From IMG/VR virus record IMGVR_UViG_3300044724_001621, positions 1 to 48,475 of that record: DNA of 48,475 nucleotides; one strand, 5' to 3'. The notes beneath the pieces were generated by a model. That model made no database searches and had not been told where the DNA came from. It saw only the letters and a program-made list of their open reading frames with translations. Below are positions 2,278-33,190 of the stretch, piece after piece. Source of the stretch: a virus. Lineage: Duplodnaviria; Caudoviricetes. The number at the start of each line of letters is the position of its first letter. Position 1 is the stretch's first letter. A program made the position numbers and the translations under genes.

Positions 2278-5200
2278 ATGAAAACTAAAAAATCTAATAT
2301 AGGTTTAAATGCTTTAAAGAAAAAAAGAGCTTCTTTTCAAAGAGGAGGTAGCCCTACTTATAATTATTCTAATTATTATAATTCAGCACTACCGAAAGAA
2401 AGTTTTATTCCTACTAGTAGTACTGAGGGTAGTATTGATCAATCTCAAAATACTAATGAAACTTCTGAAGAGTCTCCTGAACGTCAAAATATGCAAACTT
2501 ATTCTACTACTAATCAAACAGTAGCAGAAACTCAAGATAAAGATCAAACAGATCAAAAAGATCAAGAAGATCAAGAAGATCAAGATTGGACACCTGTTAA
2601 TCAACCAGATCCTCAAAGAGGATGGTCTTATCAACGTGCAAATAATTTAGGTATACAAACTACATATTATTGGCATCATGAAACTGGAGATTATAGACCA
2701 ACAAAACCGGAAAATTGGCAAAACTATGCTGATGCAAATCCTACAGAATTTGAAGAAGATAGAGAAAATCCTATAACAGGAGGAGGAGGAGGCACTGTGG
2801 CCGATAATAAAACAAATGGCTTGCTAGATACTGAAGCAAGAAAAGAACGTATTGCCGATTATGATACAGATATAGAAGCAGCTAGAAAAGGAACATTAAC
2901 TGAAGATGCTAAAGCTAAAGACGCTAAAAAAATTAAAGATGCAGGTAAAGGTACAAAAACTACAATAGCTGGTAGATTACCAGAAGGTTTTACTCTTACT
3001 CCTCCTCTTAAAACTATGCCTTATAAAACTGGTGCTAAGCCTCCAGAAGGTTACGTATGGGCTTATAAAGGTTCAGAAAGAATAGCTGTACCTAAAGGTA
3101 CTACTCGCTCAGAACCAACAGCAGCACAAGCAGGAAAGCCTACTGATGAAACTGTAACTACTGAAACAGCGAGTACTGCAACACTTAAAAGAGATGTTAC
3201 AGGAAAAAGTTATGAGGCTGCTAAAGCAAAAGATTTAGAAGATACTAAATTTGCTACTGGCACTACTGGTCAAGCTGAAGCTGAAGGCCCTTCTATGACT
3301 GAAAGAGCTAAAGCTGCTGAAAGAGATTCTACTCAAGAAAAAGAAGCTATGTCTATTCGTGCTGCTGATCGTCCTGAGTATAAAGACTATGCTGATGCTG
3401 TTACAGACGATACAAAAACTGTAGTAGAAGAAGTAGAAGGGCCAGTAGCTACAACTCGTGAAGCTATTACTATTACAGATCAAGAACGAGAAGAGCTTAG
3501 AAAAATAGCTCAAGGTCGCGGTGTAGCACTTGAAGATTTACAAGAATATCAAGATTTAATACAAACTAAACAAAGAGAAGCTCAACAAGGCGAGGCTGCT
3601 ACAAAAGAATATAAGTCTAGATTAGGGGAAGCTCCAGAAGAAACTGCTTTTCGTGCTGAATATTATGGTAGAGATTTTACACCTCAAGGTGGTAAAACTG
3701 ACATTGATGATATACCTGCTTATCAAAAAGCTGCTACAAGAGAAGCGGCAGTAGGTGAAGCAGCTCAAAGAAAAGCAAGTGAATTAGGAACAGCACCTTC
3801 AACAGATTTAGAAGGCCGTGAAGCTATAACAGGTACAGCACCTCAAGGTACAGCAGCAGAAATTGGAGGTGTTCCTACTTTTGAAGCAGCTAAAATGGAA
3901 GCTGTACAAGGTAAAGAAAGAACTGTAGCTGCTGCTGATATGATGGCTGTAGTAGCCGATTTACCTGCAGATGTTAGTGCTGCTATATCTGAAGATCCTG
4001 CAACTGTACAAGCTCAAATAGATGAAGGAGCAGATCCTCAAGTAAATGCTGCTGTAGCTGCTTTGCCTCAAGAAGCTTTAGTATCTACACAAATGGAAGG
4101 TTTATTAGCTGGTATGGAGGATGGAGAGACTCCTGCATGGGCTAGACCTGCAGTAGCTGCTATAGAGCAGCAAATGGCTCGTAGAGGGCTCTCAGCGTCT
4201 ACTGTAGGCCGTGACGCACTCTTTAATGCTATTATACAGAGTGCTTTACCCATCGCTCAGAGCAACGCACAGGCCCTCCAGCAGCGAGCACAGCAAAACC
4301 TTAGTAATGAGCAACAAGCTAACTTAGCTTCTGCTCAAAATACTATGACTGTAAGAATGCAAAACCTTGCTAATAGACAACTTGCAGCCTCACAAACTGC
4401 ACAGATGGCTCAAGAAATTAAAGTACAGCAAGGTACTTTTCAACAGCAAGCAGTAATAACAAGTGCTCAGCAAGAACAACAAACAGAACTAGCTAACTTC
4501 CAAGCTGCTCAACAAAGAGCACAACAAGAATCTAGTCAAAGACAACAGGCTGCTATTTCTCAGCTTAGTGCTAATGCACAGATGGATCTTGCAAATTTAC
4601 AGGCTGAAAGTGCTAGAGCTGGTAAAGATATGGATGCTGAGTCTGCAGGTAGACTAGCTAAGTATAATGCTCAAATTAATAAAATTATGCGTCAGGCTGA
4701 TCTTCAGCAAGATATGGAAAAAGCTAATCTTTCTCCTGCTTTGCAAGTTGAAATGCAACGTGTATCTGAAATAAATGCTGCACAAAAAGATACTATGACG
4801 GCAGAAAATCAAGAGCGTCTTGTAGAGTTACAAACGCTTATAGATTTTAGAAAAACAGATGCTACTTTTGCTCAGCAAATGGATATGGCTAACATGTCTA
4901 ACGAGCAACAGATAGAACTTGCTATGTTACAAGAAAGAGCAGCTACAGATGCGGCTAACTTTACCGCTGACAATCAATTTAGAATGCAATTTTTAAATCA
5001 AAAAGTAGCTCGTAGTGTTAGACAAGCTGAGCTTAATCAGCGTATGGAAGAAGTAAATTTAGATGCTAATTTAAAATTAGAACTTTCTGAGTTAGCTGAA
5101 AAAAATCTTACATCTAGAGCTAACATGACTGCTGAAAATCAAACGCGGTTAGCTAACTTAAATGTGTTAGTAGATTTTAGAAAAACTAATGCTACTTTAG

Positions 5201-6468
5201 CTCAACAAATGGACATGGCTAATTTAGGTAATGAACAACAAATGGAATTAGCTAACTTAGCTGAAAGAGCAGCTACAGATTCAGCTAATATGACAGAAGA
5301 AAATAGATTTAGAATGCAAAAACTAAATCAATATGTTCAAACCATGTCTCAAAATGAACAACTACTTCAGCAAGCTGACTTAGCTAATCTTTCTATGGAA
5401 GAAAAAATATCTTTAGCTAATTTAAGTGAGCAAAATAAAGCAGCTTCTGAAAGCATGAGTGCTGAAAATGTAGCAGAATTACAACGCTATGAAAAACAAA
5501 TGGGGGCTGCACAGCTTAACGCTAACTTAGCTCAACAAATGGGATTAGCTAATCTTAGTAACGAGCAACAAGCTTCTATGTTTAATGCTCAAATAGATGC
5601 TAATTTAGATATGAAACAGTTTGATGCTAATCAGCAAATGGCTATGGCTAATAGTCAGTTTATGAAATCTATGACTGTAAAAGATTTTGATGCTCGGCAA
5701 CAAGAAGCAATGCAAAACGCTACAGCTTTAGCATCTATGGATTTAGCCGCTGCTGACCAAAGAACTAAACTAGCTATTACTAATGCTCAAAACTTTTTAA
5801 AAATGGATATGGCTAATTTAAATAATGAGCAGCAAGCTTTAATTATGGATCAACAATTAGCACAACAAAGATTACTTTCCGATCAATCTGCTGAAAATAT
5901 AGCTAGGCAGTTTGGTGCTAAATCTGAGCAAGAAGTAGATTTATTTATGGCTAATGTAGCTAAAGAAATAGAACTTACTAATACATCAGCAATAAACAAT
6001 ATGAAACAGTTTAATGCTAATTCTAAAAATGCTGCTGAAGCTAGAGACGCTAATCGTTTATCAGACTATGAAAAGTTTAATGCTAGTATGAAACAAGACA
6101 TGTCTAAATTTAATGAACAAGCACAAAATAATAGAGATGCCTTTAACGCTCAAAATGCAGCAGCAGTAGAAGCAGCAGACATAGCTGATAAACGTAGAAG
6201 AAATGAAATAGACACAGCAACTCAAAATGCTATAAACATGCAAAATGCTTCTAATAGTTTTAAACTATCTACACAATCTTTAGCGTTTTTAAATCAAGAA
6301 ATGAGAGATCAAGCAGATTATGAATTTAAAGCATATGAAAGTGCAGAAGCTAGAGCAGCTTCTATTGTTGTTGCAGCTTTAGGAGCAGCAGATAATACTT
6401 TTGATGATTCTAAATGGACAACTGCTTTAAGAAGTAACATCACCACTTTATTAGCATTAGTAGGATAA
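2278..6468 (+). CDS. Internal virion/ejection protein, Q/N/A/M-rich coiled coil (putative DNA-delivery tube)
   Basis: 1396 aa; recurrent ANLSNEQQ-type units; 110-aa internal duplication; located after tail genes. Confidence 0.7.
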   Translation: MKTKKSNIGLNALKKKRASFQRGGSPTYNYSNYYNSALPKESFIPTSSTEGSIDQSQNTNETSEESPERQNMQTYSTTNQTVAETQDKDQTDQKDQEDQEDQDWTPVNQPDPQRGWSYQRANNLGIQTTYYWHHETGDYRPTKPENWQNYADANPTEFEEDRENPITGGGGGTVADNKTNGLLDTEARKERIADYDTDIEAARKGTLTEDAKAKDAKKIKDAGKGTKTTIAGRLPEGFTLTPPLKTMPYKTGAKPPEGYVWAYKGSERIAVPKGTTRSEPTAAQAGKPTDETVTTETASTATLKRDVTGKSYEAAKAKDLEDTKFATGTTGQAEAEGPSMTERAKAAERDSTQEKEAMSIRAADRPEYKDYADAVTDDTKTVVEEVEGPVATTREAITITDQEREELRKIAQGRGVALEDLQEYQDLIQTKQREAQQGEAATKEYKSRLGEAPEETAFRAEYYGRDFTPQGGKTDIDDIPAYQKAATREAAVGEAAQRKASELGTAPSTDLEGREAITGTAPQGTAAEIGGVPTFEAAKMEAVQGKERTVAAADMMAVVADLPADVSAAISEDPATVQAQIDEGADPQVNAAVAALPQEALVSTQMEGLLAGMEDGETPAWARPAVAAIEQQMARRGLSASTVGRDALFNAIIQSALPIAQSNAQALQQRAQQNLSNEQQANLASAQNTMTVRMQNLANRQLAASQTAQMAQEIKVQQGTFQQQAVITSAQQEQQTELANFQAAQQRAQQESSQRQQAAISQLSANAQMDLANLQAESARAGKDMDAESAGRLAKYNAQINKIMRQADLQQDMEKANLSPALQVEMQRVSEINAAQKDTMTAENQERLVELQTLIDFRKTDATFAQQMDMANMSNEQQIELAMLQERAATDAANFTADNQFRMQFLNQKVARSVRQAELNQRMEEVNLDANLKLELSELAEKNLTSRANMTAENQTRLANLNVLVDFRKTNATLAQQMDMANLGNEQQMELANLAERAATDSANMTEENRFRMQKLNQYVQTMSQNEQLLQQADLANLSMEEKISLANLSEQNKAASESMSAENVAELQRYEKQMGAAQLNANLAQQMGLANLSNEQQASMFNAQIDANLDMKQFDANQQMAMANSQFMKSMTVKDFDARQQEAMQNATALASMDLAAADQRTKLAITNAQNFLKMDMANLNNEQQALIMDQQLAQQRLLSDQSAENIARQFGAKSEQEVDLFMANVAKEIELTNTSAINNMKQFNANSKNAAEARDANRLSDYEKFNASMKQDMSKFNEQAQNNRDAFNAQNAAAVEAADIADKRRRNEIDTATQNAINMQNASNSFKLSTQSLAFLNQEMRDQADYEFKAYESAEARAASIVVAALGAADNTFDDSKWTTALRSNITTLLALVG

Positions 6469-8383: not shown

Positions 8384-11263
8384 ATGAGTGATGTAGATAA
8401 GTGGCTTGGTATTATTGGTGGCGTAGCAGATACGAACATAGGTCGGAGAGAAAGAGGGCCTAGCCGTTCTAGAAGACGTAACCAAGCTTTATTAGGCGTT
8501 GTTGGAGAACTTTGGAGAGATTTTGAAGTAGATAAGCTTAATCAAAAAGTAGATAATGCAAATATAGAAAACTTATTTGAAGTTGCTAGAGCACGTAAAG
8601 ATTTAATACAGGCTAAAAAAGTAAATAAAAAAGCTGAAGATTTAAAAGCTTTAGCTGCTCCCGGCACTGATTTTAACAATATGCAAGATATTGATAGAGT
8701 TTATGGCAATACAGCATGGACTAGAGCTTTATCTACTAATGATAATATTCGATCTTATATAGAAGCTAATCCTGACGATGATCGTTATACATCCAAAGCC
8801 TCTTTTAATAGATATGTGGATCAAGTATCTAATGAAGATGATAAAGATAGCTCATTAAGAAAGCTTCAAACTTCTTTAAATAATTTATACGATAGTGATT
8901 TACGCTCTATACAAAATACAATTTTAGGAGGAGAAGCTACTACTGTCGATGAAGTTGAGCCTTATATACGACAAGCACAACAAATGAAAATTAATTTTGA
9001 TTCTTCTGAAACATCTTTACTAGATATTTTAAGTGGTCGTGTTAAAAGAAATATTGCTCGCCAAGATCAAACATACGATAGATTTAGAACTGAATTTATT
9101 AGCCAACCGCAAATGCAAGCACGTACAGCTATTGCTAATTTAGCAAAAACTAATCCTAATGATAAGCAAGCAATGCAAGAAGCTTTTGCTGCTATGCCTA
9201 GAAATTTACGTTTAGAAATACCTACAGAAGTTATTTCAGTAATTAATTCTTCTAGGTACAGGAAAAATTTTTACAACGCGTTAGGTGTTATAGCAGAAAC
9301 TGTGCCTCAAATAGATAATGAAGAATGGCAAAGTATTGTAAATAATATAGTTTTAGGCGTAGCTACTGCTGACCCTACAGAAGGTCAGCTACATATGGGC
9401 AAAATTCGTGAAAGTTTAAAAGATAAAATGTCTGAAAATGAATATAACTTTGTTGTGCCTATGCTAGATAATTTAGCTATTACTAGTTCAGTTGCTGATT
9501 TAAATAACAGAGCTAATCAATATGCAACAGATGCTCGAAGCCGTATAGATCAAAAAGCAGTTAATACTACATTATTAGAAAATTTAAAAACTTCAATAGA
9601 TGAGTTATATCCTGATCAAAATTCAAAAAATTATAAAGCTGCTATGAGGGCGTATAACGCTTTGTCAAAGCAAAATAGTTTAACTAGTAGACAAATAAAT
9701 TATGGAGCTTTAACAGATCATATTCAAAATGTAGCTTTAAGTTTAAAGGAAGATTCTGGAACTCCTTCAGATTTTAGAGAAGCAATGAATTATTTAACTG
9801 ATCAACAACAAAACTTTAAAACTTTGGTAGAAGCAGAAGAGTTTATAAATTCTAGTATAGAAGATCCTGAAAAACGTTATCGCTATATAGAAGCTTTAAA
9901 TAAAACATCTAAAACTTCTCCTGCTTTATTTAAAGGTTATGAAATGTATCCGGGAAATCCTGACATGCAATCTTATGACCCAGTAAAATCTGCTGCTGAG
10001 TTTAACTCTAAAGCTAATTTTACTGAAGCTTATACAGCTAATTACTCCGCTGTTATAGATGAAAATGATGAAGATAGAAGTAAACAAGCTAGGCAAAAAC
10101 TAGGTTACTTTCATGCTACCGTAGATAATTTATTATTCCAAGATGAATATAATAATATTTTAGGTGGTAAAGCTAACAAAGCATTGTTAAGAGATTTTCA
10201 AGTAGAGTATTTAAGTAATAGTGAAAATTTTTATTACGATGAAAATGCTGAAGAAGTTGTTCTTAGAGTAGGTGATGATGAACTTGTTGACGCTTACAAA
10301 AGATATATATCAGACTTAGATGGTACTTCAAATGATGATTTTCAACTTATTGGTAGTCAAGTTTTACATACGTCTTCAAGGAAAAAACAATTATCTTCAT
10401 CTGCTTCGCCAGAAGAATTTTTAAAGCTGCATAATGCATGGGTTACTCAAACTGCTGTAGAATCTCCTTTAGCAATAAATATGACAAAAGAAGTAGCTAC
10501 AGAACAATTAAATTATGATTTTGATGAACTTTTTGATACTTTACCTTCAGGCGAATTAATACTTAAAGATATTAAACCTCCTGTGCCTGAACCTGAAACT
10601 GTAAAAAAAGAAAAAACAAATGAATCTTTAAATTTTTTAAAAACTCAATTAAATAAAGATCCTTTAAATCCTATTAATGCAGTAACCGCTGTAAGTGCAG
10701 GTTTAACAGGAGTTAAAAATTTAATAGCGGAAAGAAATGAAAAACCAATAGAGCGAGGATTACAATTTGATCGAGCACAAGCTGCCTTAACTAGCCAAGC
10801 ATTAAATAAAGAAGAAGAAAAACCTGTTGAGGTTGCTAAACCTTCTTTGCTTTCTAAAGGTAGCGATACTACTAGAGGATTAAGAAATCAAAATGTATTT
10901 AACATTAGAGATTTTGATCAAGAGTTTAAAGGTGAAACAGGTGTAGATGACGATAATTTTTTACAGTTTGAAAATGTTGAGTTAGGTATTCGTGCAGCAG
11001 ATAGAATATTAACTACTTATGGTAAAAAACATAAAATAGATACTGTTGAAGGTGTAATAAAAAGGTTTGCTCCTAAAGCAGATAATAATGATATTGCAAC
11101 TTATATACCTTTTGTTGCTAAAGAATCAGGTTTTGGAGCTCAAGAAAAAATAGATTTATCAAATCCTCAAGTTAGAGCTAAGCTTTTAGCACCTATGGCT
11201 TTAATAGAATCTAAATATAAAATTACTCCTGAAAAAATTCTAACTATGCTAGAGAACATATAA
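8384..11263 (+). CDS. Internal virion protein with C-terminal lysozyme-like domain
   Basis: GGAG RBS; C-terminal RGLRNQNVFNIR...GIRA...TY...RFAP..DNN...Y resembles the RGIRNNNPGNIR virion muralytic family. Confidence 0.7.
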   Translation: MSDVDKWLGIIGGVADTNIGRRERGPSRSRRRNQALLGVVGELWRDFEVDKLNQKVDNANIENLFEVARARKDLIQAKKVNKKAEDLKALAAPGTDFNNMQDIDRVYGNTAWTRALSTNDNIRSYIEANPDDDRYTSKASFNRYVDQVSNEDDKDSSLRKLQTSLNNLYDSDLRSIQNTILGGEATTVDEVEPYIRQAQQMKINFDSSETSLLDILSGRVKRNIARQDQTYDRFRTEFISQPQMQARTAIANLAKTNPNDKQAMQEAFAAMPRNLRLEIPTEVISVINSSRYRKNFYNALGVIAETVPQIDNEEWQSIVNNIVLGVATADPTEGQLHMGKIRESLKDKMSENEYNFVVPMLDNLAITSSVADLNNRANQYATDARSRIDQKAVNTTLLENLKTSIDELYPDQNSKNYKAAMRAYNALSKQNSLTSRQINYGALTDHIQNVALSLKEDSGTPSDFREAMNYLTDQQQNFKTLVEAEEFINSSIEDPEKRYRYIEALNKTSKTSPALFKGYEMYPGNPDMQSYDPVKSAAEFNSKANFTEAYTANYSAVIDENDEDRSKQARQKLGYFHATVDNLLFQDEYNNILGGKANKALLRDFQVEYLSNSENFYYDENAEEVVLRVGDDELVDAYKRYISDLDGTSNDDFQLIGSQVLHTSSRKKQLSSSASPEEFLKLHNAWVTQTAVESPLAINMTKEVATEQLNYDFDELFDTLPSGELILKDIKPPVPEPETVKKEKTNESLNFLKTQLNKDPLNPINAVTAVSAGLTGVKNLIAERNEKPIERGLQFDRAQAALTSQALNKEEEKPVEVAKPSLLSKGSDTTRGLRNQNVFNIRDFDQEFKGETGVDDDNFLQFENVELGIRAADRILTTYGKKHKIDTVEGVIKRFAPKADNNDIATYIPFVAKESGFGAQEKIDLSNPQVRAKLLAPMALIESKYKITPEKILTMLENI

Positions 11264-11264
11264 T

Positions 11265-14200
11265 ATGGCAGTATTAACACCTGAAGAGCTAGAAAGGCTA
11301 CAAGGTAAACTTAAAAAAAATTCTACTTTTACGGCTTCTCGTAAACAAAATACAGGGGCTAAAAATACTTTAGATACTTTAGAAAATGATGACAAGTTTG
11401 CTACAACTGCTCAAAGATTTTTAACGAGTATTGGTGAAGATGACAACACTGTAGAGTCTTTATATGAGTATATGCGAGATGCTGATTATAATTTAGCGTC
11501 TGGAGCTTATCGTGCATTCCAAGAATTACCTAATTTTTCAGACCAGCAAAAGCAAGATTATAAATATCTTAGGACAAAGTTTGAAAATGCAGATACTGGT
11601 AGTTTAAAGCAGTGGATGAGAGCAGCGGCTGACATAGGCGTAGACGTAGCTACAGACCCTACAATGATACTTAGTGCTCTTATGGTACCTTTTACTGGAG
11701 GAGCTTCTTTAGGCGGTCGTGTGGCTGCTGGCGAAGCTACAAAGCTAGGTTTAAAGCGTATTGGTAAATCTTTTGCTAGAGATGAAAGTAAGCCTGTTAT
11801 AGAAGTTTTAAAAAACGAAGGTTTATGGCTAAAAAAAGGAGGACTTCAAAACCTTAAACAAAAAAGAGCTAAAGCAATTAAAGACTATTATAAGGCTGAC
11901 GTTAAAGCTAATGCGCTTGTAGCTGCTACTGAAGGTGCTGTTTTTTCTGGTGTTGGTGAGTATTTAAAGCAAGAACAAGATGATGTAGACGGAATTAACT
12001 TACGTTATGGTTTAGATTATTTTGATATAGGTACTTCAACTGCTTTAGGTGCTGTAGCTGGTGGGGTATTAGGTGGTGGTATATCTAAAATTCAACAAAA
12101 GTTTGATCCTGAAGTTAGAAGAACTATAGAAAAGTTTTCAGATGAAAAGTTATTAGATGAATCTGATGCGGCCTACAAAGCAGCTAGAGCAGGTGAATAT
12201 GCTTTGTCTGTAACTATAGGTAAACCAACTACTCGTTTTAAAACTTTATCTAAAAATTCTCCTACTCTTGCTAGGCTGCTTACTCGTTTTAGATACGATA
12301 CTTTTAAAGGTGATGAAGGTATTGGCTTTGATGAAGATCTTCTTGAAGCCGCACGAAAAGGAGAAACACCTACTAATCGTAGCTACAAACAAGTTTTCGA
12401 TGCTACAGCAGGTAGATACAATTTAGGTTATGAAGATGCTATTAGACCTTTAACAAAAAAAGGTAAATTACGCGCAGAAGATAATGAACTTTTAAATGTA
12501 ATGATGCGTGACAAAGAATTAGAAAAATTATTTGTTGATCCTGTCCGTAATCAAAAAGAAACACAAGAAGCTTTTATAAAACGGCGTAATTCTATTAGAG
12601 CAATCCAAGATAAAAAAGCTATGGATTTGTATAGCGTTGAAGGGGCTAATGAAAACCACTTTAATGCTATTAGAAAACTAAGAAAACTTAGTAATCAAGT
12701 TTTAGATGAAGCTGCTGAAGTAGGTATTTATAGGCGTAAGTTAAAGCGTGGCCCTAATGCGTGGTTTTCAAGACGTTGGAAAAGAAATGTTATAGAAGAA
12801 AACAGAAATGAATTAGCTACTATTATGGTAGATCAGAATGCTATAGGTCTAAGTGACGAAATAATTCTACAATACTTACCAAAAGCTCAACAACAGCAAT
12901 ACAATGAGCTAATGCAATACGGTAAAGTTTATGAAGACTTAGTAACTAATTTTGAAAAACTTCCTACTACTGAAATACAAAAACGTATTAACGCTTTAGA
13001 CGTTAAGTTTAGACCTGAAAGCAAAAGAATGGACGGTACTCCAGAAGCACTAGTAGATATGCTTCATGAGTTACAAGAACGTAAGTTAGAACTTAGTAGA
13101 GCCTTACCTGACAATAGTACTTTAAGAGCTGAAAAGTTTAAAGTAGCTAATGACATTATTGATGGCATGTTAGATAAACGTAATGTTATTAATGATGTTG
13201 ATAGTGAAGTTAGTACCACTATGACTCCTTCATCTTTTAGCGCACGTAATTTGTATATGTTAGATGATAGAAGTATAGCAAAGTTTTTAGATGACGACTT
13301 TGACAGCATGATGCGAGACTATTTTAATAATAGTTCTAGAGTTATTGCGCGTAAACAATTATTTGGTATTAATACTGAAGAGTTTAGTAGGCGTTATTTA
13401 GATGACATTAGAGAAGAACTGCAACAAAAAGGCAGCACACTATCTGAAAAAGATAGAGCAGACCTAGTAGACTTATATGAAAATGCTACGGGTATTAAGG
13501 CAGGAACTTTTGAAAATGTATTAGGTCAAAGAGCTTCTGACTATGCCAAGCTATCACAGCAAGTAGCTCATCTTCCTTTAGCTACTTTATCAAGTCTTAC
13601 AGAAGCTTTTATACCTTTAACAAGAGTATCTACAGGTACTTACTTAAAAGGTATTGGACAAGCTGTTAAAAGCTGGTCACGCAGTAACTATGATGACACT
13701 ATGAAAATACTTCAGAGTGAGCATAACCTTACTAAAGATGAAGCTAACCGTGAAATGCATCGTGTTTACTTAGGCTTAGAACAAGCTGTGGCTCAACGTA
13801 TTGACAGCATAGCAGGTGAAGGTGTTCAAGATCCTACAGCCCGTAAGCTACAAAATTTATTTTTTAAAGCTAATTTTTTAAGTCAATGGACTCGTACTGT
13901 TCAGCTTGCATCTTTTACAATGGGCAAAGATTTAATTACTAGAAATTTAAAAACTGTAGCAGAGATGCAAGGGCAAAGCCTTACTAAAGGACAAAAAAGA
14001 AAATTAAATTCAGCTACTCAAGAATTGTTTGACTTAGGTATAAACATTAAACAAGGTGTTGAGTGGGTTAATTCAGGAGCTAAAAAGTATAGTAATGATG
14101 TAGATGTTGATACAGGCTTAAAGCGTTGGAATATGTTTTACGAAAGAAATGTTATGGAAGGTGCTTCTAGATTTGCTAGTGAAGTAATTCTTGATCCTTC

Positions 14201-17200
14201 TAAATCTTCTGTAACTAGACCTCATATTCAAACGTCTGCCGTAGGATCTATACTATTTCAATTTTTAGGTTATCCCACAGCTTTTGGGAACACAGTACTT
14301 AAAAATTATTACACTCAAATAAAACGTCAGCCTGTAGTAGGTACAGCCCGTGTAGGTGCTACAGCTTTGTTTATGACAGGCGTAGCTACTGGTTTAAACG
14401 CTATACGTTCAGGGGGAGAAAGCTTAGAAAAAGAACCCGATGAAATTATTTTAGATTCTGTAGCTCGGTGGGGTGGTACTGGCTTTGGAGAGTATATTAG
14501 AAACGCACAGCAAAACGCTGAAATTGGTGGTGGTATTGTAGGTACAGCAGCTAAAGCAGTTACAGGCCCTGTAGTAGGAGACGCTGTAGATGCTATTTTA
14601 TATCGCAAAGGCCCTGCCGAAATAGTAGCAACTAACGTACCTTTTTATTCCGCTATACCTTCTGATTATAGAAAAGAGTTTATTAAAGCTCCAGCTAGAG
14701 AAATAGATTATAGTTTAGGGGTTGGTTTAGGTTTAAGAAAACCTCGACAAGAACCTAGTTTGTATAGTGAGTTTGGTGCTCCTTATAGAGAGTTTAAAAA
14801 AGCTTATGATAGGGATAGAAACTTTGAAGGCGGTGTAATTGATAGAATCATAGAACGTGCGGGTGAAAATCCTAGCGCACGTATAGATCGGCTTACAGGT
14901 ACAAGTTATGAAGATCAAGCAGGAGCTATTCTAGAAAACAGAAAGTCTTTTAGGCTTGGTGGTTTTTTACGTAGAGGCATAGAAGCTTATATGTCTAAAT
15001 CTAATAAGCCTGTTACAAGAGAAGAATTAGAAGCTGATCCTTTATTCCAGCAACTGTCACCTATGTTAGGACGTATGAAAACTGTAGATGATGAAGCTGT
15101 TTTAGCAGATATAAATTCTGGTATGGCTTTACAGTACACACCTCAAGAACAAACATTTTATACTTCTTCATTTATAGAAAACTCAGTAGAGCCTAAAGAT
15201 GTGTACACCGTATTGTCAGAAGATGTAGATAGTGGTTTATACGGAAGACGCATGGGTACACAAACAGCTAAAGAATTAGAAGCTCAAAAAGTAGATGCTC
15301 CTGCTTTAAGTAAAAATAAAATTCGTATTCGTAATCCTTTAAAACTTACAAAAGGCTTACCTACTGTGCCTATGAATTTAATTTACGATACAGAATTTTT
15401 AAAAACTGTACAAAATAAAAAAGCTTTTGAAAGTTTAAGAAAAGATATAGACAGTAAAGTTAAAATTGTAATGGGCTTAGACGATTCTAAATCTTTATTT
15501 GATAAAAGATTAATTAGAAATGAAATTTTTACTTCTGGCAATAAAGATTTTTATGACTTATTAGAACGTGAAGGTTATGATGCTATTGAGTATACAGGGC
15601 CTGAATTAAAACAATATAAACTTAGTTCTAAAGACGCACAAGTAGATCCTTTTTATCAAACTCCTGCTGTTTACACAGCTTTAGGCAAAGATTCAGCAGG
15701 TTCTAAAGGAGTTCAAGAAGCTAACGAAGCAGGAGGTTTTGCTGATTATTTAAAAGATTTAGAAGCTGAAGGATTAAAAGATCCTAGAGAATCAGACGCT
15801 GGCTTTAGTATTGAAGAAGATGTAGTAGAAGCTTTACCAGAAGATACTAGACCTATGTTTTTGCCTGTGTCTAACTTAGAAGGTTCTGAGTTAGAAAAAC
15901 AATTAGCGACTACAGCAGGTAGATTTAACAAACAATATTTAGTATTTAGAAACGAACAAGTATTGCCTTTTGGTAGAACTGAAGTTCCTACTAATAAAGA
16001 AATAAACTATGTAAATTCTACGCCTTCAGAAAAACGAATTAATTTTATTGTTGAAAATCATGTAGGCGATAAAGCTGTAGATCCTTTAGCAATTAAACAA
16101 ACTTTAGAAAATGAAGGGGTATTTAACTTAGTTAGTACAGGAAATAATAAAGGCTTAGGAAAAATTATTTCTTACAAGCAAGTAACTACTGGGCTTATTG
16201 ATGATTTACGTAACAAAGTAGATGACAATACTGCTCAAACTTTAGAGTCTTTAAACAAAGCTATTATTGAAGCTGAACAAAAACGAGCTAAAGGATTCCA
16301 AGAAAAAGTAGGAAGAACTAATAAAACTCGAAGGTTTATTTTACCTGAAAGTTTTTATGTTCAGATTGTTATGGAGCCGGGTAGCGATACTGTAAATGTT
16401 AGTAAAGCTTTAACGCTTCCTGAAACTATAAAAGAAATTAAAACTACTCCTGAACTATGGTATCACCCTAAAGATAATAATGTTTTGTCTGAAACAGCTA
16501 GACGTTGGAGACTTTTAAACTCTGAAGATGCTAACTTAAAACAATACATTACTCCTACTACCGAACAGTTAGAAACTCGTCAAGAAAATGTAGGTAAAGT
16601 TTTAGGTAGTTTGCAAAAAATGCGTACAGTTATTCAAGATACAGTAACTCCAAAACGAAATAAAAATGGAGAACTAACTAAAATAGGTTTAACTTCTGAA
16701 GAGTATACAAAGTTAATGGCTCTTCCTGAAGAAAAAAGATTTAAACCTTTTAAAAGAACTATAGATGTAGATACAACTAGAGGACTTCAGTACTCAGGTA
16801 AGTTTGATAAAGATTTAGAGTCTCAAAAAGAAGAAGCAGAAGTAAGAGAAATTTTTAATCCTCAAGGCGGTGAAGATCCTGAAACTTTATCAGAAGGTTC
16901 TACGATAGAAAAAGCAAGTTATGCAAATAGATTTTCTAAAGGTGTTACTAGTAAACAAAGATTTGATTTAGAACAAACAAAAGAATTTTTAGAAAAAAAC
17001 CCCGAGTTTTTAGATGATGATAACTTTACAGCACAGCAACCAGAAACCTATATTGAAACAACTCCTCCTAGATCTAAAATTATTTTACCTTCTTTAATAC
17101 CAGAAAATAAACAAGTAGAAATTAAACCTTTTAAGTATGAAGAAGGTAAAAAAGCTTGGGCGCATTATAGTAAAAATAATAATACAATTTATATAGATGA

Positions 17201-17504
17201 AAATGAATTAGAAAAAAGATACAAAGATAAAGCGTGGGAAAACCCTAAAGTTAAAGGCGTTAAACCTTTGCCTGAAAATGCTATTACTAGTTTAAAAGAA
17301 TGGAAAAACTTTGTATATGCTCATGAAAAATCTCATGTAGTTAATCTAAGAAGAGAAAATGAAAGTTTAGCTGATTACGAAAATAGAACAAATGAAATTG
17401 CTTTAGCTGATTTAATATATCAAAAAGAAATGGCTAAAAGAAATAAAAAATTTAAAGGTGGTGTAGTGTTACAAGCTCTTAAAAGGAAAGTAATTAATGT
17501 ATAA
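11265..17504 (+). CDS. Large internal virion/ejection polyvalent protein
   Basis: 2079 aa; hydrophobic G/A-rich segments; RIDRLTG.SYEDQAG motif; C-terminal ART-PolyVal-like motifs and HEKSH. Confidence 0.75.
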   Translation: MAVLTPEELERLQGKLKKNSTFTASRKQNTGAKNTLDTLENDDKFATTAQRFLTSIGEDDNTVESLYEYMRDADYNLASGAYRAFQELPNFSDQQKQDYKYLRTKFENADTGSLKQWMRAAADIGVDVATDPTMILSALMVPFTGGASLGGRVAAGEATKLGLKRIGKSFARDESKPVIEVLKNEGLWLKKGGLQNLKQKRAKAIKDYYKADVKANALVAATEGAVFSGVGEYLKQEQDDVDGINLRYGLDYFDIGTSTALGAVAGGVLGGGISKIQQKFDPEVRRTIEKFSDEKLLDESDAAYKAARAGEYALSVTIGKPTTRFKTLSKNSPTLARLLTRFRYDTFKGDEGIGFDEDLLEAARKGETPTNRSYKQVFDATAGRYNLGYEDAIRPLTKKGKLRAEDNELLNVMMRDKELEKLFVDPVRNQKETQEAFIKRRNSIRAIQDKKAMDLYSVEGANENHFNAIRKLRKLSNQVLDEAAEVGIYRRKLKRGPNAWFSRRWKRNVIEENRNELATIMVDQNAIGLSDEIILQYLPKAQQQQYNELMQYGKVYEDLVTNFEKLPTTEIQKRINALDVKFRPESKRMDGTPEALVDMLHELQERKLELSRALPDNSTLRAEKFKVANDIIDGMLDKRNVINDVDSEVSTTMTPSSFSARNLYMLDDRSIAKFLDDDFDSMMRDYFNNSSRVIARKQLFGINTEEFSRRYLDDIREELQQKGSTLSEKDRADLVDLYENATGIKAGTFENVLGQRASDYAKLSQQVAHLPLATLSSLTEAFIPLTRVSTGTYLKGIGQAVKSWSRSNYDDTMKILQSEHNLTKDEANREMHRVYLGLEQAVAQRIDSIAGEGVQDPTARKLQNLFFKANFLSQWTRTVQLASFTMGKDLITRNLKTVAEMQGQSLTKGQKRKLNSATQELFDLGINIKQGVEWVNSGAKKYSNDVDVDTGLKRWNMFYERNVMEGASRFASEVILDPSKSSVTRPHIQTSAVGSILFQFLGYPTAFGNTVLKNYYTQIKRQPVVGTARVGATALFMTGVATGLNAIRSGGESLEKEPDEIILDSVARWGGTGFGEYIRNAQQNAEIGGGIVGTAAKAVTGPVVGDAVDAILYRKGPAEIVATNVPFYSAIPSDYRKEFIKAPAREIDYSLGVGLGLRKPRQEPSLYSEFGAPYREFKKAYDRDRNFEGGVIDRIIERAGENPSARIDRLTGTSYEDQAGAILENRKSFRLGGFLRRGIEAYMSKSNKPVTREELEADPLFQQLSPMLGRMKTVDDEAVLADINSGMALQYTPQEQTFYTSSFIENSVEPKDVYTVLSEDVDSGLYGRRMGTQTAKELEAQKVDAPALSKNKIRIRNPLKLTKGLPTVPMNLIYDTEFLKTVQNKKAFESLRKDIDSKVKIVMGLDDSKSLFDKRLIRNEIFTSGNKDFYDLLEREGYDAIEYTGPELKQYKLSSKDAQVDPFYQTPAVYTALGKDSAGSKGVQEANEAGGFADYLKDLEAEGLKDPRESDAGFSIEEDVVEALPEDTRPMFLPVSNLEGSELEKQLATTAGRFNKQYLVFRNEQVLPFGRTEVPTNKEINYVNSTPSEKRINFIVENHVGDKAVDPLAIKQTLENEGVFNLVSTGNNKGLGKIISYKQVTTGLIDDLRNKVDDNTAQTLESLNKAIIEAEQKRAKGFQEKVGRTNKTRRFILPESFYVQIVMEPGSDTVNVSKALTLPETIKEIKTTPELWYHPKDNNVLSETARRWRLLNSEDANLKQYITPTTEQLETRQENVGKVLGSLQKMRTVIQDTVTPKRNKNGELTKIGLTSEEYTKLMALPEEKRFKPFKRTIDVDTTRGLQYSGKFDKDLESQKEEAEVREIFNPQGGEDPETLSEGSTIEKASYANRFSKGVTSKQRFDLEQTKEFLEKNPEFLDDDNFTAQQPETYIETTPPRSKIILPSLIPENKQVEIKPFKYEEGKKAWAHYSKNNNTIYIDENELEKRYKDKAWENPKVKGVKPLPENAITSLKEWKNFVYAHEKSHVVNLRRENESLADYENRTNEIALADLIYQKEMAKRNKKFKGGVVLQALKRKVINV

Positions 17505-24139: not shown

Positions 24140-24444
24140 TTTCTATGCCTTATAAATCTACACTTACGTGTAACTGAATTATAATGGAGATACTGAACAC
24201 CTAATTTTTTTTGTGTTGGTGTTTTTGCAGAAAGCCTACCATCTTTGTAAGACTTAACATCTATTAAAATAACTTTACCTTTTGGATCTAAAGCTATAAT
24301 ATCGATAGGCCCTGTGCAACCACAATTTTTAAATACATGGTAGCCATTATCCCACAACCATGTAATAGCATAATGCTCTGCTAAATCTCCTATTCTACTT
24401 GGATCATGTTTAGGTTTTCTATCTGATATTTTAATAGGTTTCAT
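24136..24444 (-). CDS. Small PD-(D/E)XK nuclease, Hjc-like
   Basis: GDLAE...DIIA...IDVKS. Confidence 0.7.
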   Translation of the reverse strand: MKPIKISDRKPKHDPSRIGDLAEHYAITWLWDNGYHVFKNCGCTGPIDIIALDPKGKVILIDVKSYKDGRLSAKTPTQKKLGVQYLHYNSVTRKCRFIRHRK

Positions 24445-26186
24445 TAGTGTGTTTCACTCCAGTTATCTCCTATTTTGTACTCACCATCTAAAGGACAGCG
24501 TAAGTTAAATACGTCAGTAACTTGTCTAATAGCTTCTACACCCGCTTCACCTACTACAGTAGCATACTCTTCTTTAACTTCCAACTGCCACTCGTCATGG
24601 ATGTTAGCTACAAAATAAGCAGGGTAGTTATTCTCCTGTATAATATTGTTTAATATTACTAATGCTTGCTTCATTACAGCAGCTCCTGCTGATTGTAATA
24701 AAGTATTTAATGCAGCATGCTCATGTCTTATCTTAACTTTTCTACCGTCTAATCCTTTGAGATAACCCTTTGCTGATGCTCTTTCAACGCGCTCCTTAAG
24801 GTTTGCAAGTGCAGGAAGATTATAGAGAAAACGTCTTCGTAACGCAGCGCCTTCTCTTTTACTTCCTCCGACCACTGAAGCAATTCTAGCGTCTCCTGCT
24901 CCGTATAAGAATGCATAGATGAAAGTTTTAGCCTGATTTCTTGATTCAAGTCCTGCAAGTTTTTGATTTGCTGTGTGTATGTCTCCATTGAGAATCTCAT
25001 TTGTGTACTCCTTATCATTCATGTAGTGAGCAAGCATACGTAATTCAAGACCACTAGCATCTATGCCTACAAGTTTATGTCCTTCTGGTACAACCCAACA
25101 ACTTCTACAGTCTTTACCGTAAGGACTATATACCGCTGGTATCTGAGCCATATTAGGTTTTAAGTGTGACATCCTACCAGTAATTGTACCGTTAGAAATA
25201 GCATAGCCATGTACTCTATTGTCTTCTTTTAAGTTTTTAAACCATGAGTCTACTTGTGCTATTCTTTTTTGAAGTAGTAAGTAAGTGGCAATTAACTCTG
25301 CTTCAGGTATATTTTTAACAGTAGCTAACGTACCTTCATCTACAATAGGCTGGCCTGTAGGTGTAAACTTAGAAGGCTTCCAACCAAAGTCTTGAAGATA
25401 CTCACCTATTTGTTTACGAGATCCTAAATTAAATTCTTGAAGTTTCTTTCTATCAAAAGGCAACCAACGAGTTTGAATTGGTTTAGCCATTATTAAATTA
25501 TACTCATCTGTAGTTAAACCTTGTTTAGACAATGTACCATCTTTCTTTTTCTTAGGCTTTACGGTCTTAAGCGTAATTAATTTAGGTTTAAAAACTTGTT
25601 GTACAGTTTGTTCAATATTTCTTTTGCGCTCATTTAAATCTGCAAGCAATAAAGAAGCTTTGTATTCATCAAATAAAAAGCCATGCTTTTCTTGCTCTTT
25701 TAAAATTAAAGATACTTCATGCTCTAAGTTAATAGATCTATGGTCAAAGTCTGCTAACTCTTTTAGTAACTCTTCAAACACTAAAGCATTTAGCTCTACA
25801 TCATTAACACAATAGTCTAACATTTTTTGTGTATAGCCTGAAAAATCTTCTTGCTCCATAGAACCTTTTAGAAAATTTAATTGATAGCCCCAATGCTTTA
25901 AGCTATGTCCTCCACGTTCAGGGTTAGCTAATCTTGATAGCACCAAGGTATCAATTATTTTTTTATTTTTAAAATTAATATCTGTAAGCTTTTCTAATAC
26001 AGGTATGTCAAACCCTAATATGTTATGACCTATAAGTAAGTTAGCTTCTTTAATTAATTTTAAACCTTCATCTATATTGTCTGGTGAAAAAGCGTGTATC
26101 TTATTAGCGTCTAAATCTTTAGCTACTAAACACCAAAGCTTGTTTGCTTCTAAACCATCAGTCTCAATATCAAAAACTAATTTCAT
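24444..26186 (-). CDS. polA: DNA polymerase family A with 3'-5' exonuclease, T7-like
   Basis: FDIET, GHNILGFD, YCVND exo motifs; DASGLELR, RNQAKTFIYAFLYG, HDE pol motifs; start set at MKLVFDIE. Confidence 0.95.
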   Translation of the reverse strand: MKLVFDIETDGLEANKLWCLVAKDLDANKIHAFSPDNIDEGLKLIKEANLLIGHNILGFDIPVLEKLTDINFKNKKIIDTLVLSRLANPERGGHSLKHWGYQLNFLKGSMEQEDFSGYTQKMLDYCVNDVELNALVFEELLKELADFDHRSINLEHEVSLILKEQEKHGFLFDEYKASLLLADLNERKRNIEQTVQQVFKPKLITLKTVKPKKKKDGTLSKQGLTTDEYNLIMAKPIQTRWLPFDRKKLQEFNLGSRKQIGEYLQDFGWKPSKFTPTGQPIVDEGTLATVKNIPEAELIATYLLLQKRIAQVDSWFKNLKEDNRVHGYAISNGTITGRMSHLKPNMAQIPAVYSPYGKDCRSCWVVPEGHKLVGIDASGLELRMLAHYMNDKEYTNEILNGDIHTANQKLAGLESRNQAKTFIYAFLYGAGDARIASVVGGSKREGAALRRRFLYNLPALANLKERVERASAKGYLKGLDGRKVKIRHEHAALNTLLQSAGAAVMKQALVILNNIIQENNYPAYFVANIHDEWQLEVKEEYATVVGEAGVEAIRQVTDVFNLRCPLDGEYKIGDNWSETH

Positions 26187-26194
26187 ATTTTTTC

Positions 26195-26836
26195 CTATAA
26201 AGTAAGAGCCTTCCAAGAGTACTTAAGTTGTGGGCATCTTTTAAATTCATCGTCAATCATCTTAGCTATTTCACGACATTCAAACTGAGCATCGTCGCTA
26301 GATCGTAACTTAACTACTCTAGCAAAAGCAACTAATGATCCTGTCCAAATCCATTCGGTCATCATAGACTGTGGTAAAATCATACGTGCTTGTTCTGGGG
26401 CTACACCACTGGCTATCATGTTATCATACACAGCTTCAGCCTGACTAATTAAATCAGAATACTTTTGCTGAAACCTAGTATGTTCATCGCCTACAAATAC
26501 TACATCCGATGAGCCTTGCTTTTTGTTGTCTGCACGTTTACGCCACAGCTTAGGGATGTGATACTCAGGTAAAAAATCTACGTATCTCCGACTAACCTCA
26601 TTCCAAACCATACCTACTTGATGTTTAACTAATTGTCTAGCTACAAATACTGGAGCACTAATTCTAAACTGTGCTTGTACATGTGCGAAGGGAGTCCAAT
26701 GATCATGCTTTGCTAAGTAAGTTATTAACTTTTTATCTCTTGGCCCAAACTCTCCTACCATATTAGCAAATGAAACTCTCGCACTATTAGCTACAGTCTT
26801 GTCGTCACCCATTAAATCTATCATGTCTACTTTCAT
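26195..26836 (-). CDS. thyX: Flavin-dependent thymidylate synthase
   Basis: ARVSF, HWTPF, RQLVKHQ...NEVSRRY, EQARMILP, AQFE; start set at MKVDM. Confidence 0.93.
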   Translation of the reverse strand: MKVDMIDLMGDDKTVANSARVSFANMVGEFGPRDKKLITYLAKHDHWTPFAHVQAQFRISAPVFVARQLVKHQVGMVWNEVSRRYVDFLPEYHIPKLWRKRADNKKQGSSDVVFVGDEHTRFQQKYSDLISQAEAVYDNMIASGVAPEQARMILPQSMMTEWIWTGSLVAFARVVKLRSSDDAQFECREIAKMIDDEFKRCPQLKYSWKALTL

Positions 26837-27420: not shown

Positions 27421-29079
27421 TTAAAAAGGTATATCCTCAAACTCTAATTTCTTAGGTTCTTCTAAAGGTACTTCATTTAAACGACCTGTTTCAGTATCAT
27501 AAAGTAACTGAGCAGCTAAGCCTACGTCACCTGTATAGCGAGATTTAAGTACACGAATACGTGTGGTCTTAGCTTCAACTTCATCAGTAGATTGTTGGTT
27601 TCTTTCTAAAGCAATAATAGAATCAGCAACATGTGAGATACCTGCTGATCCTCTAATGTGATGCATCTTTACTTCAGCACCATTCTCATGACCTTCCGAA
27701 GAACCTCTGTTAAGATGTGATACACAAATCATACCTACATTTGTTTCAGATACTAAACTTCTTAAGTGTGTCATAAGACTATCAATTGTTTTACGCTCGT
27801 CATTACCTTCAGAGCCTGAAACAAACATATGTAAATGATCTACAATAATCCACTTGCAGTCACAACCGATAATCATAAAACGTAACTTAGCTAGTGTCTC
27901 GTCAATACTATTAACACCAAAGTGAGCATGAATAAATATTTTATCTTCAGATAAAACTTTATTGTAAAGATCACTTAACTCTTCATCACCGTAATTTTCT
28001 CTTACTTCTTTTAAATGAATCTTATCATTAGCTTCAATGGACACAATACCGTCTACTGTTCTACGCCAATCTTCTTCTAACGCTACGATACCAATCTTGT
28101 CGGGACTATTAGTTAATAAATGATGAGACAATTCTCTAGTAATAGCACTCTTACCTAACCCTGTACCTCCTGCTACAACTAACAACTCACCTTGTCGTAT
28201 ACCTAAAAGCTTATCATTTAAACCTTCCCAAGGATAATTAACTGTAGCATGAACTTCTCTGTCTAACCATTCATGTAGTTTTTCTGAGGTTCTAATAATA
28301 CCTGTAGGAGTATAAGTACTAGCTTGCCAAAAAGCATCTTGATATTCTTTGAATGCATTCTTTTTAAGCATATCATTAGCATCTTTATAACCTATAGGCA
28401 ATGTCATTATCTTTGCTTTGTTAGGTCTAAACAACGCAGCACATTTAGCAGCAGCATCTCTACCGTGCTTGTCATTATCAAAACAAATAATTACATTTTC
28501 ATATGTCTCTAAAAACTCTAGATTCTTTTTAATGTCTGAAGCTGCTGACTGCGCTCCGTTTTTAATTGATACACAAGGCCATCTGCTACCCGTAAGTTCG
28601 TAAGCTGCCATAGCATCACACTCACCTTCGGTAATAGTAATGTACTTACCTCCTGTCTGACAAATAGACTGACCAAACAAACCACCTTCTTGTATCTTAC
28701 CCTGAGATGTAAAGCCTTTTGTTTTAGACTTACGAATTTTGTAAGCTACTAAGTCTTGTCCTTTGTAATAAGGATAATAATGTTCTTTAATCTGTCCTTC
28801 ATTATCATAAGTTACTCTAACATTATAACGCTTAGCTGTTTCTTCTTTAATGCCTCTATCAGTTAGCGCACCTATCACTCCTATGTAATCATCTTTAGAA
28901 AAATGAACTACATTATTTTCTGACGACTTTGTATAACTGTTCATACCTTCCTCTGGATTTTCATAATTTCTCATGTAACCTTTACAGCTAAAACAAAAAG
29001 CTGATCCATCTTCGTTTATAGATGCAGCGTTTGAACTATCACACAAATTACAGGGTACATATTTTTTAACGAAAGTCAC
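27421..29079 (-). CDS. Primase-helicase, T7 gp4-like
   Basis: N-terminal CxxC..CxxC zinc finger, TOPRIM (TEGECDAM, FDND), Walker A GGTGLGKS, IVDHL, HIRGS, KSRYTG. Confidence 0.95.
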   Translation of the reverse strand: MTFVKKYVPCNLCDSSNAASINEDGSAFCFSCKGYMRNYENPEEGMNSYTKSSENNVVHFSKDDYIGVIGALTDRGIKEETAKRYNVRVTYDNEGQIKEHYYPYYKGQDLVAYKIRKSKTKGFTSQGKIQEGGLFGQSICQTGGKYITITEGECDAMAAYELTGSRWPCVSIKNGAQSAASDIKKNLEFLETYENVIICFDNDKHGRDAAAKCAALFRPNKAKIMTLPIGYKDANDMLKKNAFKEYQDAFWQASTYTPTGIIRTSEKLHEWLDREVHATVNYPWEGLNDKLLGIRQGELLVVAGGTGLGKSAITRELSHHLLTNSPDKIGIVALEEDWRRTVDGIVSIEANDKIHLKEVRENYGDEELSDLYNKVLSEDKIFIHAHFGVNSIDETLAKLRFMIIGCDCKWIIVDHLHMFVSGSEGNDERKTIDSLMTHLRSLVSETNVGMICVSHLNRGSSEGHENGAEVKMHHIRGSAGISHVADSIIALERNQQSTDEVEAKTTRIRVLKSRYTGDVGLAAQLLYDTETGRLNEVPLEEPKKLEFEDIPF

Positions 29080-30178: not shown

Positions 30179-30205
30179 GAACAGTTTAAGCACATGTTCA
30201 GGTAC
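30179..30205 (-). ncRNA. H-type pseudoknot motif, copy C
   Basis: GUAC-CU-GAACA-U-GUGC-UUAAAC-UGUUC, 10 nt after stop codon. Confidence 0.7.
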
Positions 30206-32877: not shown

Positions 32878-32904
32878 GAACAGTTTAACGACATGTTCAG
32901 GTCT
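32878..32904 (-). ncRNA. H-type pseudoknot motif, copy B
   Basis: AGAC-CU-GAACA-U-GUC-GUUAAAC-UGUUC, 10 nt after stop codon. Confidence 0.7.
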
Positions 32905-33163: not shown

Positions 33164-33190
33164 GAGCAGTTTATAGACATGCTCAGGTCT
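33164..33190 (-). ncRNA. H-type pseudoknot motif, copy A
   Basis: AGAC-CU-GAGCA-U-GUCU-AUAAAC-UGCUC, 9 nt after stop codon. Confidence 0.7.

Follow-up and report, generated by a model that had tools for sequence, protein, structure and literature searches.

Why should a large virion protein of a short-tailed-type phage carry a stretch of sequence that is also found in the thumb of a phage DNA polymerase? The question is raised by a virus record of 48,475 bases (~93% complete; hereafter ‘the window’, meaning the whole stretch of DNA analysed), whose genes include those for a terminase, an SU10-type portal and adaptor, capsid, T7-like primase-helicase, SSB, PolA, ThyX and ribonucleotide reductase. 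The best cultured match for its polymerase is that of pelagiphage HTVC103P (52% identity), and the metagenome runs that best hold the window are estuarine. Maricaulis was considered as a host and set aside, the sole lead being one 45% relative within a Maricaulis MAG, which is not host evidence.

Positions 16641–16757 on the plus strand and 25449–25565 on the minus strand encode segments that give a gapless alignment, with identities at 20 of 39 residues (72 of 117 bases), corresponding to amino acids 1793–1831 of the 2,079-residue ORF at 11265–17504 and 218–256 of the 590-residue PolA at 24444–26216. Both the translations quoted in the preliminary description and its count of seven identical residues (of the 20) that use different codons were confirmed. 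Across an all-against-all BLASTP of the window's 49 ORFs, this is the only inter-ORF pair with E < 0.1 (5.6e-9 or 1.4e-4, depending on direction). The shuffled-alignment check that the preliminary description had proposed gave an observed local score of 103, reached by none of 2,000 shuffles of the polymerase segment against the whole 2,079-residue protein (maximum 56) and by none of 5,000 shuffles of the copy against the polymerase segment (maximum 49); the whole polymerase scores 120 against the protein, as compared to at most 87 against locally shuffled versions of it (0/300). With the window's own polymerase left out, an HMM of polymerase inserts matched the window copy with an E-value of 6.6e-11 and, when run over 73 proteins of the carrier family, picked out three (those of the window, P0014 and P0048; E ~1e-10), the next best of the 73 having no domain under E 0.3. 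The reverse HMM, built from the copies, gave 77 domain matches in polymerases and no significant match besides polymerases.

Table 1. Features of the window discussed in the text, with positions on the whole stretch and the evidence for each
Feature	Position	Strand	Evidence
Virion protein of 2,079 aa, likely an ejection protein of the gp16 (inner-membrane) type, variable polyvalent-type C-terminal half	11265..17504	+	ORF; PHROG 7348 and 6958 at aa 632-1111; LUZ24 gp50 homology
Conserved core (aa 683-1112) with homology to gp50 of Bruynoghevirus LUZ24	13311..14600	+	25% over 459 columns, E 3e-15
Optional insertion, 166 bases where empty alleles have 10; a net gain of 52 codons, ~aa 1785-1838	16613..16778	+	P0003 and L136 without insert
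39-aa core copied from the mini-domain at the polymerase thumb tip; prediction gives basic hairpin, helix, short helix, PF.R	16641..16757	+	Alignment, HMM
Second optional module (aa 1920-2058) bearing a conserved HExxH; candidate zincin-like peptidase	17022..17438	+	Missing in L137, L002, L136
DNA polymerase of family A, T7-like (590 aa); family is the donor	24444..26216	-	Pfam PF00476; 52% to HTVC103P; closest solved structure T7 gp5
Insertion at the thumb tip (aa 210-262), predicted as stem of two strands, basic hairpin and helix; T7 thioredoxin-binding-domain position	25431..25589	-	Family alignment, AlphaFold, T7 gp5 alignment
Substitution hotspot in polymerase insert, aa 241-249, among close alleles (96-99% identical; L137, L223)	25470..25496	-	Allele comparison

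On the polymerase side, the matched segment belongs to an insertion lying between a thumb helix and the FNLGS motif, which was found across the related polymerases aligned (82 inserts extracted) and varies from 31 to 82 residues over 106 distinct versions (polymerase loci L004–L267), with lineage-specific expansions in the helix region; the HTVC103P enzyme has only a short version. Our AlphaFold model of the polymerase (mean pLDDT 93, with 88–92 in the insert) places the predicted stem at amino acids 212–219 and 254–260 and the helix at 236–243, with a lysine-rich hairpin, and T7 gp5 was ranked first when the whole model was submitted to Foldseek. As the preliminary description had stated, the segment precedes FNLGSRKQI at the T7 gp5 insertion position; its link to the thioredoxin-binding domain holds for position, but not for sequence, with T7 amino acids 258–333 scoring -3.0 and -3.5 bits against HMMs of the polymerase inserts and of the copies, respectively. 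Like the T7 domain, the donor insert sits at the thumb tip ahead of an FN.S motif, is basic in composition (14 K/R and 5 D/E, as compared to 12 and 8 in the copy) and closes with a motif, PF.R, that aligns with T7 P325-Y326-T327. Unlike that domain (~71–76 residues; the gp5 loop itself is 71 residues, PMC3997047), it is 53 residues long, shares no HMM similarity, is predicted to form a hairpin-plus-helix knob and, as a module, also occurs outside the polymerase. Same position, without detectable sequence similarity, makes the insert—on alignment—a positional counterpart of the T7 domain rather than a demonstrated member. Prediction of a complex between thumb residues 148–320 and E. coli thioredoxin returned a score of 0.00 in both runs, uninformative either way.

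Among close polymerase alleles the hotspot holds 6 of the 21 changes that separate the window's enzyme from that of L137 (scan-corrected p ~6e-5) and 3 of 5 for L223, start residue excluded. In a second polymerase group the insert takes a share of changes that is not disproportionate (~5–6 of 67–73), so the hotspot may simply be a relaxed loop. Rows of the L021 group, which drew on the wrong ORF, do not enter this comparison.

The carrier is likely a gp16-type ejection protein, being homologous over its core to LUZ24 gp50—an annotated particle protein—and encoded by the last and largest of the ejection-type genes; its packaging in the virion and injection are likely on grounds of that homology, in keeping with the preliminary description of it as a virion ejection protein. 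The C-terminal part of gp16-type ejection proteins presumably faces the cytoplasm. A hydropathy scan of the 2,079-residue protein picked up a single weak hydrophobic stretch (amino acids 255–273, 1.34). LUZ24 gp50 follows a 505-residue gene, just as Pa223 gp53 follows the 505-residue gp54 (an orthology based on size and gene order, and not on alignment); Pa223 gp53 is reported to be a putative gp16-like inner-membrane ejection protein, present in virions by mass spectrometry (10.1101/2025.06.11.659172). Unlike LUZ24 gp50, the window protein is twice the size, with a C-terminal half that is a mosaic.

The C-terminal half gave a Pfam match in 11 of 20 relatives scanned (chosen partly for precomputed matches), where the cargo comprises ART-PolyVal, NADAR, AlkB, SLOG (cpYpsA, YAcAr), DUF7831, LysM and lysozyme; the window's own protein has no Pfam match. 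Relatives bearing SLOG, AlkB, NADAR, DUF7831 or ART-PolyVal cargo are P0022–P0025, P0032, P0035, P0052 and P0054. With conflict cargo (ART, NADAR, AlkB, SLOG) in this half of its distant relatives, the 2,079-residue protein resembles a polyvalent protein. The second optional module of Table 1 retains HExxH in 21 of 28 distinct matches; Atlas offers SprT-like and Peptidase_M78 clusters as leads (0.86–0.87, under 0.9), with no Pfam match, and a contig joint from 17021 to 17443, which skips the module, is present in two of four metagenome runs. The same module is found elsewhere in distant relatives (P0059, amino acid 402; P0069, amino acid 926). A survey of 135 family tails for captured fragments of phage genes returned the polymerase insert only, besides cargo shared with virion or unassigned ORFs. 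Fold searches with a model of an ejection-protein fragment gave no BFVD match at E <=0.001 and a best VIA Z of 2.8, although these barely probed the insert; a PDB sequence search with the family profile returned nothing significant.

The copy forms the core of a 52-residue insertion within this variable half. In two deeply split lineages of the family, A and B, whose proteins are only 38–58% identical around the site, an insert occupies the identical position, adding 52 residues in lineage A and 53 in lineage B. Among the members listed, it is present in 5 of 13 distinct protein sequences spanning the site in lineage A (8 without) and in 15 of 32 in lineage B (17 without), these being counts of database records and not population frequencies; neither of two outgroup proteins has it. 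Empty alleles keep an ancestral junction motif in common with the outgroups, indicating that the insert is the derived state. The empty junction is also seen in the environment as a contig joint from 16612 to 16779, in three of four metagenome runs from two studies; it was not seen in the four runs examined for the joint of the HExxH module. In lineage B, the ~17 residues to the left of the insert differ strongly between alleles, which argues for long coexistence, and in both lineages all four combinations of insert and HExxH module are represented. The preliminary description had held that absence or decay of the segment in close relatives would tell against it: P0003, 98% identical over the core, is indeed without the segment, yet cleanly so, as an alternative allele with no sign of decay, and the module is thus optional. 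More distant relatives have unrelated, indel-prone sequence at the site; an apparent remote copy in one of them (L148) turned out to be an artefact of the alignment, for an HMM built on the copies gave no match there.

Searches for further carriers, as the preliminary description had suggested, recovered those already known and no third. Against 1.84 billion representatives there were two matches, a lineage-A allele and a chance repeat lying outside the insert; a profile search of proteins of 99–2,000 residues returned two known carriers only; annotated phages gave no carrier match and Atlas no usable one; and 26 viral loci resolved into six known carriers and 20 polymerases.

Where, then, did the copy come from, and has it been under selection? 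The whole insert lies in ungapped register with polymerase amino acids 210–263, with conservation limited to the 39-residue core; identities in the stem strands number just 1 of 8 and 0 of 7. When amino acids 1540–1870 were modelled from sequences of ejection proteins alone, the bridges of the hairpin and the two helices fell in exactly the register of the polymerase, with no stem and a pLDDT of ~34–58, which hints that the copy may share the fold of the polymerase insert. The preliminary description had named the phage's own polymerase as the source; the thumb insert is indeed the source, but the donor appears to be the polymerase of the subgroup. Ranked against the window copy, the window's own enzyme comes third of 106 inserts (scoring 103, as compared to 104 and 104), and in lineage B the own polymerase comes tenth of 106; in L137 the polymerase patch has changed, whilst the corresponding part of its copy has not. 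Both observations indicate that the copy derives from the thumb-tip mini-domain of the subgroup's ancestral PolA, judged on these alignments, and does not track the present one; concerted evolution of copy and own polymerase is unsupported by the same ranks and by the L137 mismatch.

Drift simulated to the same DNA identity leaves a mean of 13 of 39 residues, with 20 reached in 1 of 1,954 simulations; neither this result nor synonymous codons alone can tell whether selection acted on the copy or on the donor. The protein-level selection claimed in the preliminary description is supported; a comparison of lineages A and B provides the better test, separating the two if there was a single capture. 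Of the 17 columns conserved in polymerases, copy A has the consensus residue at 14 and copy B at 13, with A and B identical at 14; over the 22 variable columns they agree at just 7 (Fisher p 0.003). If there were two captures, part of this shared conservation would have been inherited from the polymerases. Trees resting on ~50 columns disagree on this point: with 21 rows the copies form one clade (84/67), with 57 rows under a mixture model they come together in none of 200 bootstrap trees, and with 25 rows the AU p is 0.51. Common site, length and copy-specific residues lead us to favour one capture. The copy branches are long, at 2.2–2.3 changes per column against no more than 1.3 on any polymerase branch. 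Insert alleles of lineage A differ by four nonsynonymous and no synonymous changes (borderline, p 0.05), those of lineage B by two of each.

What the copy does is a matter on which we can offer only a tentative reading, to which we give well under even confidence: that it acts as a decoy, occupying, ahead of the genuine enzyme's synthesis, a host factor that recognises the polymerase. Illegitimate recombination would have captured a thumb-tip piece of the ancestral subgroup polymerase into a tolerant region; the 2,079-residue protein, packaged in the virion, would deliver it to the cytoplasm; there it would occupy the polymerase-recognising factor ahead of polymerase synthesis; and both alleles would persist since the benefit depends on the host strain. 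The long coexistence of alleles, the setting amid conflict cargo and a donor surface that changes fast all point to such a host-dependent benefit. Also in favour of the decoy reading are the fact that both alleles are common in each lineage, the occurrence of the insert in all combinations with the HExxH module, the agreement of copies A and B chiefly at conserved columns and the 4:0 excess in lineage A. Host systems of the right kind exist, aRES being reported to bind T7 polymerase and Avs proteins to bind polymerases (PMC13728456). Against this, the copy does not follow the polymerase allele of its own genome, the donor hotspot may be nothing but a relaxed loop and the 4:0 excess is borderline and not repeated in lineage B. 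Few copies of a gp16-type protein enter the cell (four in T7; 10.1101/2025.06.11.659172), which is little for a sponge; a mimic might trigger a sensor rather than block it; and Avs sensors are reported to read core folds (PMC13728456), and not a small insert. The fuller version, in which an injected polymerase-tip mimic pre-emptively neutralises host proteins that sense or inhibit phage replication and is kept as a self-decoy by balanced polymorphism, we regard as unlikely.

An invariant ligand would account for the failure of the copy to track the variable patch, and such a ligand might be DNA: the basic hairpin could bind duplex DNA or another polyanion, thereby anchoring the ejected protein, along with its cargo, on the genome as it enters. 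Thumb-tip insertions of phiKMV-like enzymes are described as positioned to contact nascent duplex DNA (PMC10201439), and both copies keep counterparts of the conserved basic residues K225, K231 and R256 of the polymerase, besides hydrophobic and turn residues. We nonetheless think this somewhat unlikely, since the copy is less basic than its donor, the stem strands are not conserved and a purely mechanical benefit should have gone to fixation, whereas the insert is missing from 25 of the 45 sequences (among members listed). That the module is dispensable, that distant relatives have unrelated sequence with variable indels at its site, that the copy branches are long and that no third carrier came to light would all fit a tolerated passenger instead, a self-contained knob in an indel-tolerant region, kept folded merely to avoid harm; this too seems unlikely to us, given an insert that persists whole, its reading frame unbroken, in both of these deeply split lineages alongside the ancestral empty allele, a core that has kept 20 of 39 residues where drift would leave a mean of 13, and the retention of conserved basic residues. 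Least probable, and in our judgement improbable, is the recruitment of a polymerase cofactor to the entry site, whether host thioredoxin or the acidic tail of an SSB or helicase. The insert occupies the position of a T7 domain that binds thioredoxin and whose basic patch binds the helicase acidic tail (10.64898/2026.05.20.726333; PMC3997047), its PF.R aligns with the T7 closing motif, and both helicase and SSB of this phage have acidic tails with a terminal Phe; but sequence similarity to the T7 domain is wanting, the insert is shorter, the copy is without the N-terminal stem motif and the phage's helicase and SSB would presumably be absent at the time of ejection. Such a domain reaches at least 50 residues in only ~29% of T7-like polymerases, and thioredoxin binding by shortened domains is described as not established (both PMC10201439).

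Set beside known systems, the carrier protein is of a type already known and the polymerase-fragment cargo is new. As with polyvalent proteins, described as very large, likely virion-packaged products of portal-terminase phages with swappable conflict domains (PMC5512222, PMC9503650), there is an HExxH module in the window protein and ART-PolyVal in a relative; unlike those of PMC5512222, the window protein has as its cargo a fragment, without enzymatic function, of the replicative polymerase of its own phage group, and the main text of that paper (Iyer et al. 2017) mentions neither ‘thumb’ nor ‘thioredoxin’. Schitoviruses similarly fuse cargo to this subunit (the virion RNA polymerase fusions of N4 and DEV; 10.1101/2025.06.11.659172), although theirs is a working enzyme and not a fragment of one. 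The decoy reading would share its logic, to occupy a defence protein, with sponge and mimic anti-defence proteins such as aRad1, which acts against the polymerase-sensing aRES (PMC13728456); unlike aRad1-type proteins, described there as separate and effector-blocking, what we propose is a virion-borne mimic of the sensed phage protein itself, a strategy not found among the sponge and mimic systems examined. Within the full-text literature searched (main texts, few of them from subscription journals), no polymerase thumb fragment in a virion protein is described.

The locus thus presents the transfer, inside a single phage group, of a small folded module from a core replication enzyme to a structural protein, with both alleles still circulating, and natural insert-plus and insert-minus alleles of proteins otherwise 97–99% identical make its function directly testable. 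Were the decoy reading true, it would reveal a polymerase surface recognised by hosts together with a new anti-defence route; a grip on DNA or a cofactor would tell us the role of short thumb inserts in marine T7-like polymerases, most T7-like enzymes being without the full thioredoxin-binding domain.

Several further features of the window were recorded in passing. The primase-helicase ends in an acidic C-terminal tail with terminal DIPF (27421–27450, minus strand), resembling the tails of bacterial SSBs, and the C-terminus of the phage SSB (29655–29690, minus strand) is likewise acidic with Phe. The C-terminal 130 residues of the product of 8384–11263 (plus strand) form a lysozyme-like PHROG 873 domain; a similar domain is found on the tail of L116, a distant relative of the 2,079-residue protein, making it cargo common to two virion genes. 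At 2278–6468 (plus strand) lies a Gln/Ala-rich protein of 1,396 residues, without a Pfam or PHROG match, whose ORF contains internal DNA repeats (4763–5001 and 5093–5331, 72%). Lastly, an intergenic motif is repeated exactly at 30179–30203 and 32878–32902 in the leftward-transcribed arm (two exact matches; 0/100 shuffles), with a looser third copy at ~33164–33190, and is possibly a promoter or operator.
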